This document shows, one piece after another, positions 5,466 through 16,482 of a DNA stretch of 64,000 nucleotides. Under the pieces are notes generated by a model. That model was not told the DNA's origin and did no database searches. It was given only the letters and a program-made list of their open reading frames with translations. Position numbers and translations under genes: made by a program. This DNA comes from Promethearchaeota archaeon. Lineage in GTDB: Archaea > Asgardarchaeota > Lokiarchaeia > Sigyniarchaeales > SOKP01. The stretch's first letter is position 1; every line of letters begins with the position of its first letter. Location: the NCBI GenBank assembly GCA_016840165.1, contig JAEOSU010000080.1:1-64000 (forward strand), written 5' to 3'.

Positions 5466-5570
5466 CTTTTCAGTAACACCTTTAATATTTAGGATTATAT
5501 TATGTAGACTTAAAGTTACAAAAATAAGGTATTTTTAATATTTTTAGTTTATATTATAAAACCGATTAAA

Positions 5571-5671
5571 CGCAGTTGAGGGGATTTGAACCCCTGAGTG
5601 CTTACGCACACTGGCTTTATGGGTAAATAACCACTCCAAGCCAGCGCCGTACCAGGCTAGGCAACAACTGC
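5571..5671 (-). tRNA. tRNA-Ser(GGA) with a 17-nt canonical 37/38 intron (5617-5633)
   Basis: Acceptor GCAGTTG/CAACTGC, discriminator G, anticodon arm CTGGC-TT-GGA-G|A-GCCAG, long variable arm, T arm AGGGG-TTCAAAT-CCCCT. Confidence 0.93.
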
Positions 5672-5715
5672 AAATATAAATAAAAATATTTTAAAAAAAT
5701 ATTGTGGGAAATTGA

Positions 5716-13730: not shown

Positions 13731-13895
13731 CTCAAATATTTTATTTAAAGATAAAAAATTATGTAATATTTGCTTCGATTATTAATATAGTAGATTAATA
13801 GAATAAAAAAATTTTTATGTTTTTATTCTTTTTGACTTTATAAGATTGAGTCCCTAGTAAAAGTACATAATAGGAGCGCAATCAAATAATATTAT

Positions 13896-14105
13896 GGGCC
13901 ATTAGCTCAGATATCTACGAGAGTTTATCTCGTTAACTAAAATGGTTAACAAGGTTTAATAGAAGCTTGGTCAACAAGCGCAGGTCTTATAAATGACACA
14001 CAGACATACAAAAGCAAGCAATTGTCTGTATTTAGTAAAAACCTGAGATCCGGGGTTCAAAATGATTAATCATAACCATTATTCATGAAATTCCCCGATG
14101 GCCCA
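13896..14105 (+). tRNA. tRNA-Ile(UAU) interrupted by four BHB-type introns (about 13913-13942, 13949-13975, 13993-14040, 14062-14091)
   Basis: Acceptor GGGCCAT/ATGGCCC+A; anticodon arm CAGGT-CT-TAT-AA-ACCTG; 5-nt variable loop; T arm CGGGG-TTCAAAT-CCCCG; spliced product is 75 nt. Confidence 0.85.
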
Positions 14106-14109
14106 TCTT

Positions 14110-14790
14110 TTATTTATCCAATACAGTATCAACTAAATTCAAAACCCATTTCTTAATCTGCATTAAATTTTTTAACAATCCAGGTACCAGATTGTCTGGG
14201 AATGGTTTTTCTTGATCCAAAGTTTGGACATTGGTCATCCATTTATTTAATGCTAATTGAACCAAACTTGAACCTTCAGCTTCCATAAACATCGGAACAA
14301 CCGCAGCACTTTCTCTAGCATCCCCTATTGTGAAATAAACTTTCCTATTTATTTCATTTAGCATAACATAATTTGCACATTCATCTAATTTTCTTTCAAC
14401 TAATATAATTTTAAGAATTTGACTCTTTAATTCATTATCTTGAGAAGAGAAAGAGATTTTTCGTTTTTCAAGTTTTGGTTTAACCTCATTTAATAACTTG
14501 TCTCCCGTAGTTCCTTCAGGAAAATATTTTGTTAAACGTAATCCATCATCTAATGCTTCAATAAATGTAAACTTTTTTGTGTTTGAATAGAAAATAGTCT
14601 GAGAACCCTCTTTGGTTTCATTTGCCGATTGCTTTAAAAAAATATTTCTCATACCTACAGAATTGGTGGTATGGTATGCTAATTCAAATAATTGCTTTGG
14701 AATTAAAGGTTCATAAGGTATTTTTGTTTGAGTAAATGCCCATTGAGTCCGAATAACGTTATTAAACTGAGTTAAAAGTCGATTTTCCAT
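14110..14790 (-). CDS. Hypothetical protein
   Basis: 226-aa ORF with normal composition; no family confidently recognised. Confidence 0.7.
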   Translation of the reverse strand: MENRLLTQFNNVIRTQWAFTQTKIPYEPLIPKQLFELAYHTTNSVGMRNIFLKQSANETKEGSQTIFYSNTKKFTFIEALDDGLRLTKYFPEGTTGDKLLNEVKPKLEKRKISFSSQDNELKSQILKIILVERKLDECANYVMLNEINRKVYFTIGDARESAAVVPMFMEAEGSSLVQLALNKWMTNVQTLDQEKPFPDNLVPGLLKNLMQIKKWVLNLVDTVLDK

Positions 14791-14930: not shown

Positions 14931-16307
14931 TCATTTTTTGCGTATTTGAGAATAAGCTTTTTCAAGACGCTCAATTGCTAATAGTATATCTTTAGATTGA
15001 GCTCCAATTGCCGCATTCATTACAATATAGGGTTGACTATAATCTTCACAGCAGGTACCAAATGCTTTCTCTCTTGAATTATATACTCGTGGCCCAGTAA
15101 CTCTCAAATTATACAGAGCACCTCCTAATGCAGTTAATTGTTCTTTTTTTAAATTATTTAATGACATCGCTACTGCTACCGGATTAAATATTTTTAGGAT
15201 CCTTTCATCAAGTTTTTGTGCAAGAGTTTGGAGTTTCTCTTCAAGTAATTTACGATTTTGTTGCTGCTCTAACAACATTCTTTCATAGCCTTTAACTCCT
15301 AAAGATAACATAGAGATGAGAAAATTCACTATAGGTGTTGCAGAAGCTCTGCCAGCGTATGCTTGACTTATTTGTGTAATAATTTCTTCCCTTGGTGAGG
15401 CAATTACCGCTCCCCCTATTGGAGTAAGTATGTTTTTATCAGTTGATTGAATTACAGCATCTACACGGCCAGCATCTATACCTGCACGTATCAATTTCAT
15501 CCATTCTGGACTTTGAACACCATATGCGTTAATTACAATATGGACCAAATTCTTATCTTTTGCAAATTTACTTATCTCTTTAATATCATCATGCTCTCGA
15601 GGTGGGAAAAAACTTGTGACGGACAGCACAGCAAAACAATCATCATCATAATTTTTTATAATATCCTCAATTGGAATCCTTACAGCATCATCAAAAATTT
15701 TTCCCTTAATAATTTTAGAGCGAATTCCCATCAAATCTAAAGCTTTCAAGAGTGATTTATGATCTACTTGAGGTACTAAAACTTTCCTTTTTCGCAGAAA
15801 TTTCTCCTCATTCCAATCTGGCTTAAGAGCGCCTAAACATAATGCTAAGGACATCCCAGTACAGAGTGGAATGACTATTGCTTTTTGAATATTGGGCAAA
15901 CCGAACTTTCTAAGAAAATCTCTGGCTAAATAATTAGAAATTTCATACATAATTGACCCACCTGGAGCTTTTGGCTGAGGTGCGGTTAAGAATCCACTTC
16001 TACCCACACCATGACAGAATCCTGAGGAAGTAAGCAGATGCAGTCGAGAAGCAATTCTAGCCTCTCTTTCTCCCACCCTTGATGCTTTATCATCTTTATC
16101 AGTATCCATATTTGAGAGAGTTTGTAAGAAAAAGTTTATTTGTTCCTCACTCCAAGGATCAATAGGCATGCTCTTTTGTTCGAATAAGATTCGCATCGGA
16201 TTAAGAAAGTTATTTAAAACCAAGTTGCCTCGATTAAGCATATTCTGAGGGATGGAAGTGTTTTCAAAATATCTAATAATGTTATCAAAATCAACCAAAA
16301 ATATCAC
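14931..16307 (-). CDS. spcS: O-phosphoseryl-tRNA(Sec) selenium transferase (SepSecS)
   Basis: GEREARI, HGVGRSG, PQPKAPG, CTGMSL, DHKS, NAYGVQS, GRVDAVIQSTDKN (PLP lysine); true start may be the TTG at 16298. Confidence 0.97.
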   Translation of the reverse strand: MIFLVDFDNIIRYFENTSIPQNMLNRGNLVLNNFLNPMRILFEQKSMPIDPWSEEQINFFLQTLSNMDTDKDDKASRVGEREARIASRLHLLTSSGFCHGVGRSGFLTAPQPKAPGGSIMYEISNYLARDFLRKFGLPNIQKAIVIPLCTGMSLALCLGALKPDWNEEKFLRKRKVLVPQVDHKSLLKALDLMGIRSKIIKGKIFDDAVRIPIEDIIKNYDDDCFAVLSVTSFFPPREHDDIKEISKFAKDKNLVHIVINAYGVQSPEWMKLIRAGIDAGRVDAVIQSTDKNILTPIGGAVIASPREEIITQISQAYAGRASATPIVNFLISMLSLGVKGYERMLLEQQQNRKLLEEKLQTLAQKLDERILKIFNPVAVAMSLNNLKKEQLTALGGALYNLRVTGPRVYNSREKAFGTCCEDYSQPYIVMNAAIGAQSKDILLAIERLEKAYSQIRKK

Positions 16308-16329: not shown

Positions 16330-16482
16330 TGGCGGCCCTCGAGGAGAGTTTCGAAAGTTAGGAAAATCCTAGCTATTATCGAACTCCTATCCCTCCGCAG
16401 GATAACTAGGTTTGAAGCCTAGCGTCAGAGACCACTTATCGTAAAAAACCGATGAGGTTTTTAATTCCGACCGTCAAGGGCC
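16330..16482 (-). tRNA. selC: tRNA-Sec(UCA), 9/4 fold, two introns (D arm 16436-16465; T loop 16348-16377), genome-encoded CCA
   Basis: 9-bp acceptor GGCCCTTGA/TCGAGGGCC, G73+CCA, anticodon loop CT-TCA-AA, long variable arm, 4-bp T stem GGAG/CTCC, 7-bp D stem after splicing; both introns have good BHB motifs. Confidence 0.93.

Follow-up and report, generated by a model that had tools for sequence, protein, structure and literature searches.

The interrupted gene and its surroundings

The window, by which we mean the whole 64,000-nt stretch of DNA analysed, carries at 13896-14105 of the forward strand a 210-nt tRNA-Ile(UAU) gene, whose sequence is as described in the initial annotation. Five exons of 17, 6, 17, 21 and 14 nt alternate with four introns of 30, 27, 48 and 30 nt, and the gene is flanked by a promoter-like box and a T-rich tract:

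13810..13844, +: putative promoter box; TATA-like TTTATAA (13837-13843) some 55 nt ahead of the mature 5' end
13896..13912, +: exon 1; acceptor 5' strand, U8 and A9, D-stem 5' strand, D-loop 14-17
13913..13942, +: intron 1, D-loop position 17/17a, 30 nt; central helix TCAG/CTAA pairing at 3/4, with one C.A; inner 6-bp hairpin ACGAGA/TCTCGT
13943..13948, +: exon 2; 6-nt micro-exon TGGTTA (U17a G18 G19 U20 U20a A21)
13949..13975, +: intron 2, position 21/22, 27 nt; central helix TGGT/GTCA, adjacent inner helix CAAG/CTTG
13976..13992, +: exon 3; D-stem 3' strand, G26, anticodon-stem 5' strand, loop CTTATAA
13988-13990, +: anticodon TAT, within exon 3
13993..14040, +: intron 3, anticodon loop, 48 nt; central helix of U33-U36, TTAT/GTAA; inner TGA/TTA; 7-bp hairpin ACAGACA/TGTCTGT
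14041..14061, +: exon 4; anticodon-stem 3' strand, variable loop AGATC, T-stem 5' strand, T-loop 54-59
14062..14091, +: intron 4, T-loop position 59/60, 30 nt; T stem (5 bp) as outer helix, TTCA/TGAA central, bulges AA-A and AT-T (hyphen at the cut), inner TGA/TCA
14092..14105, +: exon 5; U60, T-stem 3' strand, acceptor 3' strand, discriminator A73; CCA not encoded
14106..14115, +: T-rich tract TCTTTTATTT, likely a transcription stop

Removal of 13913-13942, 13949-13975, 13993-14040 and 14062-14091 leaves a 75-nt string identical to the cloverleaf that the initial annotation had derived by taking out four inserts. ARAGORN reads this spliced sequence as tRNA-Ile(tat) with a 7/4/5/5 cloverleaf, in which the acceptor stem has 7 bp, the D stem contains a single C13.A22 mismatch, and the anticodon and T stems have 5 bp each. 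By direct reading, the 75-mer contains the invariant U8, A14, G18G19, A21, U33, A37, G53-T54-T55-C56, A58 and C61, and the G15:C48 pair. Intron removal restores the cloverleaf and its invariant nucleotides in this gene, as judged by ARAGORN, and all 53 distinct orthologous genes described below likewise collapse to 75 nt. We conclude, with a probability of about 0.93, that 13896-14105 (+) is a four-intron tRNA-Ile(UAU) gene of a Promethearchaeota (Lokiarchaeal) archaeon.

Many orthologues are preceded, mostly at a distance of 25-30 nt, by a promoter-like box of some 35 nt (tttttatg...ctttttgactttataa), and in nearly all orthologues A73 is followed by a T-rich tail. The box at 13810-13844, with its TATA-like motif, is a putative promoter and would give a 5' leader some 30 nt long. 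Immediately past the tRNA gene, on the opposite strand, lies a 226-aa open reading frame (14110-14790, -) with no Pfam match, followed by the gene for SepSecS (14931-16307, -). The latter is adjoined by a weak tRNA-Sec match (16346-16450, -; RF01852, 20.6 bits, E=0.8, under the 47-bit threshold), which fits an intron-interrupted tRNA-Sec beside its own SepSecS. A Lokiarchaeal tRNA-Sec with a T-arm intron has been published (cited in PMC5330540).

Intron presence and absence among orthologues

Orthologues were collected by BLAST of the locus against 40 relatives and by a search for the neighbouring SepSecS gene. The resulting 63 orthologous loci, syntenic with SepSecS, represent 53 distinct genes, and come mostly from metagenome-assembled genomes labelled Promethearchaeota/Promethearchaeia (formerly Lokiarchaeota), with a few labelled Hod- or Hermodarchaeota or uncultured archaeon. 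Introns occupy five positions across the family:

Anticodon loop: intron present in 53/53; central helix 4/4 in 53/53
Position 21/22: intron present in 50/53; central helix 4/4 in 49/50
D-loop 17/17a: intron present in 18-19/53; central helix 4/4 in 16/18 scored
Variable loop 45/46: intron present in about 12/53
T-loop 59/60: intron present in about 12/53; central helix 4/4 in 10/12

The maximum in one gene is four, reached by seven distinct orthologues in three combinations, and none of the 53 genes has five. Alignment with Lokiarchaeia orthologues, proposed in the initial annotation as a check, reveals that each non-canonical intron is absent somewhere at exactly the predicted junction: relatives without the intron read GCTCAGAT directly into TGGTTA, TGGTTA into AAGC, or TTCAAA into TCCCCG. 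Intron 1 is missing, for example, in L080, whose GCTCAGATTGGTTA equals the predicted junction; intron 2 is missing in L018, L037 and L039, which read TGGTTAAAGC or TGGTTACAGC; and intron 4 is missing in most orthologues, which read TTCAAATCCCCG or TTCGAATCCCCG. Exon 2, TGGTTA, shows little or no variation across the orthologues, and is joined to exon 1, to exon 3 or to both wherever the flanking introns are absent.

These junctions also bear on a model with three introns, in which one long D insert (about 13913-13968) replaces introns 1 and 2 and a second TGGT, within TGGTCAAC at 13968-13975, supplies G18G19. The model draws on the near repetition of exon 2 plus one base, TGGTTAAC, at the 3' end of intron 2, TGGTCAAC. 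It would, however, produce a 12-nt D loop with C instead of A before the stem. In L018, L037 and L039, where there is no insert, TGGTTA is followed by AAGC or CAGC; many orthologues that have intron 2 and lack intron 1 keep TGGTTA beside exon 1; and the pairing partner of TGGT varies between GTCA and GCCA. We therefore rejected the single long insert using the second TGGT, which the intron-less orthologues rule out and to which we give a very low probability, and retain the four-intron gene model.

Exons average 94% pairwise identity and the anticodon-loop intron 70%. In a comparison with the nearest species, 75/75 exon positions agree, as do 29/30, 26/27, 41/48 and 23/30 positions in introns 1 to 4. 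The anticodon TAT is invariant in all 53 orthologues and in two genomes of a sister family. Among the 26 distinct mature sequences, stem changes are compensatory: G3:C70 becomes U3:A70 in the acceptor stem, the anticodon stem occurs as CAGGU/ACCUG, CCGGU/ACCGG and CGGGU/GCCCG, and the T stem as CGGGG/CCCCG and GGGGG/CCCCC. Covariation extends to the central helices, with TCAG/CTGA against TTAG/CTAA at intron 1 and TTCA/TGAA against TTCG/CGAA at intron 4. The mature sequence is under purifying selection, and its stems change in a compensatory way. Together with the exact exon-exon junctions of the intron-less orthologues, this bears out the proposal of a functional tRNA with four BHB (bulge-helix-bulge) introns. 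The C13-A22 mismatch of the D stem, pointed out earlier, is present as described and is not a defect; it occurs in roughly half of the orthologues, with U13-A22 in the others.

On a tree of the single SepSecS gene, the same four introns are common to the window and its two nearest species. On this single-gene tree, close sister taxa often differ in their intron set, and intron turnover looks fast. L075 and L039/L076 have near-identical SepSecS proteins and differ in both the exon sequence and the intron set of tRNA-Ile(UAU), with introns at 17/17a, 21/22 and the anticodon loop in L075, and at the anticodon loop, the variable region and the T-loop in L039/L076. This discrepancy implies very fast turnover or recombination, or else mixed bins. 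The 53 orthologues amount to a natural series of gains and losses at five positions, which could help in studying the substrate rules of the splicing endonuclease (EndA) and the arrival of introns.

BHB motifs and splicing machinery

We applied the archaeal cutting rule, which calls for a 4-bp central helix with 3-nt bulges on both strands and puts each cut two nucleotides to the 3' side of that helix. Under this rule introns 2, 3 and 4 have central helices paired at 4/4 and intron 1 at 3/4, and all helices named in the initial annotation, TCAG/CTAA (3/4), TGGT/GTCA with CAAG/CTTG, TTAT/GTAA and TTCA/TGAA, are found in their assigned places. When each intron is shuffled, a central plus inner helix at least as good arises with a frequency of 0.07 at intron 1, and with one of about 0.002 at introns 2, 3 and 4 alike. 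De novo enumeration was uninformative as a test: the A/T-rich 210 nt accommodate 35 BHB-like motifs whose helix pairs at 4/4, which provides no discrimination. Since the motif is this common by chance, a BHB-like motif by itself is weak evidence, and it is the comparative data that settle the gene model.

The four motifs differ in regularity. Only intron 4 has the strict hBHBh' form, with the T stem as the outer helix and TGA/TCA as the inner helix, in agreement with its earlier description as a perfect BHB with helix TTCA/TGAA. Intron 2 lacks an outer helix, which makes it an HBh'-type motif. At intron 3 the inner helix h' is present; the 3' side forms an internal loop and not a clean 3-nt bulge, and C32 and U31 are unpaired opposite the bulge. 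At intron 1 the inner hairpin is set off from the central helix by a small loop, the central helix shares positions 12-13 with the D stem, and the 3' bulge lies directly against the intron 2 helix. We class introns 1-3 with the relaxed HBh'-type motifs that L1-loop EndAs accept (PMC5829648). The assignment of intron 3 to position 38/39 holds by the cutting rule, and gives the same product as the canonical 37/38; because runs of A stand at both ends of this intron, sequence cannot distinguish the two. No C or D boxes, as in a C/D-box guide, were seen by eye in intron 3.

Folding with ViennaRNA, of the whole precursor and of each intron with its flanks, places none of the four A/U-rich central helices in the minimum free energy (MFE) structure, and the BHB-type structure of the precursor has -38.7 kcal/mol versus -60.4 for the MFE fold. 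We take this outcome as a caveat and not as evidence that refutes the gene model.

The genome of the window encodes two PF01974 paralogues, of 201 and 205 aa. The first, EndA alpha, can be aligned over its full length to the Aeropyrum pernix EndA catalytic subunit (3P1Z_B, E=3e-38), keeps the Tyr, His and Lys positions, and contains a KPR stretch that corresponds to the Crenarchaea-specific (L1) loop. The second paralogue, beta, has Ser where Methanocaldococcus jannaschii EndA has the catalytic His. Two such proteins fit an (alpha-beta)2 EndA with an L1 loop, the architecture reported for Asgard EndA, which has broad specificity and accepts relaxed HBh' motifs (PMC5829648). The ligase RtcB is also present (556 bits).

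With these components, a precursor of at least 210 nt, probably transcribed from the TATA box about 55 nt upstream and ending in the T tract, would be cut by (alpha-beta)2 EndA at each intron, each time two nucleotides to the 3' side of the central 4-bp helix. Ligation of the 17-, 6-, 17-, 21- and 14-nt exons by RtcB, followed by CCA addition, would give a canonical 75-nt class-I tRNA. The exon/intron map and its conservation, the enzyme genes, and the lack of TiaS and of a second copy are directly demonstrated; we infer the transcription signals, the cleavage and ligation, the charging with isoleucine and any order of intron removal. Because exon 2 is only 6 nt long, sequential cutting and joining is more plausible than simultaneous cutting, and the overlap of the intron 1 helix with the D stem and the abutting motifs of introns 1 and 2 likewise make a stepwise course plausible.

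The initial annotation took an outer pair of the 21/22 motif, which forms only once intron 1 is gone, as a sign of ordered splicing. This particular argument is not supported, as the outer helix has zero length (h=0) in 35 of the 50 orthologues with a 21/22 intron, a count taken irrespective of intron 1. A more general possibility is that the gene is real and that one or more of its weak motifs (intron 1, the 3' site of intron 3) are cut only after rearrangement of the precursor, after loss of another intron, or with the help of another factor. The 3/4 helix of intron 1 and its crowded position, the preference of MFE folding for other pairings, and the precedent of Cyanidioschyzon merolae pre-tRNA-Ile(UAU), from which non-canonical introns are removed before the canonical one (PMC3728597), all speak for it. 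On the other side, the outer pair invoked for such an order is not conserved, and the broad-specificity L1-loop EndA of Asgard archaea takes relaxed HBh' motifs (PMC5829648). On balance we consider such conditional cutting a real though lesser possibility.

Detection by standard programs and the tRNA census of the genome

The expectation that standard tRNA finders would probably miss this gene proved right for ARAGORN and Rfam. On the raw DNA of the locus, neither ARAGORN nor Rfam at its gathering threshold returns anything, and Rfam gives nothing even at E<=1. The problem extends to the whole genome (G000; 3.6 Mb, 31.6% G+C, 99.7% complete), in which the same programs find only about 20-23 tRNAs. 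Our own scans recover about 30 of the roughly 45 tRNA genes expected, and an initiator-like gene is the only one with a CAU anticodon among them. A scan for pairs of acceptor and T arms, run without prior bias, recovers the locus, which at 210 nt is the longest candidate. Two other searches yielded nothing of use: a loose anticodon-stem scan for GAT, CAT and TAT tRNAs gave hundreds of chance matches, and a D-arm BLAST match at C54:249937-249949 is not a tRNA. Lokiarchaeal genomes are under-annotated for tRNAs, as this one shows.

Several other interrupted genes were encountered in the census. A tRNA-Ser(GGA) gene with an intron in the window itself (5570-5672, -) scores 42 bits with RF00005, and is reported by ARAGORN only when introns are allowed, which is not the default. 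The tRNA-Ile(GAU) gene (G000:C63:165021-165137, +) is interrupted once, around positions 8-13, by an intron of some 42 nt with the direct repeat TGGCTT on its flanks; ARAGORN miscalls the gene as tRNA-Ala(AGC), and the acceptor stems of the GAU and UAU isoacceptors are unrelated. An intron of 30-34 nt at T-loop 59/60 occurs in seven tRNA genes of the genome (on C30, C49 (two), C54, C58 and C63 (two)), that is, in six besides the UAU gene. These introns share a perfect TTCR/YGAA helix with the T stem as the outer helix, and are otherwise unrelated in sequence. An imperfect 8-nt direct repeat, TGGTTAAC (13943-13950) and TGGTCAAC (13968-13975), spans both boundaries of intron 2 of the UAU gene. 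This repeat and the TGGCTT repeat of tRNA-Ile(GAU) may have a bearing on the origin of such introns.

AUA decoding and the probable need for the gene

In archaea AUA is usually read by tRNA-Ile2(CAU), on which TiaS makes agmatidine. The TiaS domain PF08489 was found in none of the window's genome, its 41 relatives and the 51 genomes of its family, in a search that matched all four archaeal control genomes and 120 of the 201 genomes of the phylum. Nor did the domain turn up in several further families of that phylum. Two genomes of the sister family, which have no TiaS, encode a UAU tRNA with the anticodon-loop intron alone. A TiaS-positive genome, G046, contains a one-mismatch match to the UAU anticodon arm.

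The loss of TiaS coincides with a single-copy tRNA-Ile(UAU) in the window's family. The anticodon-arm 17-mer AAGCGCAGGTCTTATAA occurs once per genome in 49 of the 51 family genomes, and no second copy of any exon combination was found in the genome of the window. In long open reading frames, AUA accounts for 31 per 1000 codons (3.1%) and 31% of isoleucine codons, and is the ninth most used codon. The absence of a second copy and of TiaS, combined with this usage, makes the gene probably essential, and these genomic data, taken with the roughly 30 tRNA genes recovered, point to it as most likely the sole AUA decoder.

The same observations weigh against a decaying pseudogene or non-functional remnant, with AUA read by another tRNA. 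One could take the C13.A22 mismatch, the mismatch in the intron 1 helix and the silence of the standard finders as signs of decay. Yet the exons are 100% identical to those of the nearest species, with diverged introns between them; the stems change in a compensatory manner; the gene is kept once per genome across nearly the whole family; and a widely used codon would be left with neither another gene copy nor TiaS in the genome. The mismatch itself is replaced by U13-A22 in the other half of the orthologues. The initial annotation had named an intact copy elsewhere, beside a decaying locus, as the finding that would speak against it, and we see the opposite: no other copy, and exons preserved at 75/75. 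Pseudogene decay is accordingly highly improbable. The four-intron tRNA-Ile(UAU) gene is a single-copy and probably essential gene divided into five exons, one of 6 nt, and its four introns place it near the top of the known range of interruption.

The anticodon-loop intron is found in all 55 genes examined, and U33-U36 pair with GUAA or AUAA in 53/53 orthologues. Its retention, paired to the anticodon and never lost, may be a new observation, as may the family-wide loss of TiaS with an isoleucine tRNA of anticodon UAU; a literature search returned no paper mentioning TiaS jointly with Asgard archaea.

Comparison with known interrupted tRNA genes

A published counterpart with the same isoacceptor is the nuclear tRNA-Ile(UAU) gene of the red alga C. 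merolae, which has three introns with BHB motifs and splicing intermediates detected by RT-PCR (PMC3728597). Like the present gene, it carries introns in the D arm, the anticodon loop (37/38) and the T loop; unlike it, it is eukaryotic, has three introns instead of four, carries its D-arm intron in the stem, and has no 6-nt micro-exon (PMC3728597). The initial annotation mentions, as a point to be verified, a multiply interrupted tRNA-Ile(UAU) from Korarchaeum, where the gene has one intron (PMC6000648); the published multi-intron case is that of C. merolae (PMC3728597). The tRNA-Ile3(UAU) genes of Korarchaeum cryptofilum and Nanoarchaeum equitans are comparable as archaeal AUA decoders in genomes reported to be without tRNA-Ile2(CAU) (PMC6000648; 10.1101/614032). 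The Korarchaeum tRNA, with its single intron, resembles the tRNA-Ile(GAU) of its own genome (PMC6000648), whereas here the acceptor stem of tRNA-Ile(GAU) is unrelated and the UAU gene has four introns.

[quoted passage not shown] As in the Lokiarchaeal family, the anticodon-loop intron of the yeast gene is always present and is paired to the anticodon in the precursor (PMC11408192; PMC4090602). The parallel is speculative, because a BHB motif at the anticodon loop requires the same pairing anyway. By this analogy, a whole Lokiarchaeal order might have dropped TiaS and agmatidine and come to read AUA in the eukaryotic manner by tRNA-Ile(UAU), the intron being kept for modification of U34 and U36 in the way of Pus1 pseudouridylation; we regard this as doubtful. 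If true, intron-dependent AUA decoding would be older than eukaryotes.

Among archaea, the Thermoproteales are the classical comparison (Sugahara 2008; Marck and Grosjean 2003, as cited in PMC4090602 and 10.1101/614032). Their tRNA genes also have BHB and HBh' introns in the D arm, the anticodon loop and the T loop, and their (alpha-beta)2 EndA has the Crenarchaea-specific (L1) loop. By the same accounts, their usual maximum is three introns, and they are thermophilic and G+C-rich, with stable helices, whereas the helices described here are A/U-rich and not predicted by folding.

Genes of this kind are already described in Asgard archaea. According to PMC11291895 (Valentin-Alvarado et al. 2024), 92-95% of the tRNA genes in complete Atabey- and Freyarchaeial genomes contain introns, many of them non-canonical and multiple. 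A preprint (Goswami et al. 2026, bioRxiv 10.64898/2026.10.13.758758) describes as many as five intervening sequences within a single Asgard tRNA gene, introns in the D arm that tRNAscan-SE overlooks, recurrent intron gain, and a two-subunit EndA that is widespread. The view of the initial annotation that multi-intron tRNAs usually have up to three introns is superseded by these accounts (10.64898/2026.10.13.758758; PMC11291895). The present gene agrees with them in D-arm introns that escape annotation, in recurrent gain and loss, and in an (alpha-beta)2 EndA. In the text consulted, these studies stress Freyr-, Jordi- and Atabeyarchaeia as the heavily interrupted lineages and do not name the Lokiarchaeal family that is followed here through 53 orthologues. 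In sum, four introns, a bias to the D arm and fast turnover were already known in Asgard archaea, and the Lokiarchaeal gene is a further, well-documented example.
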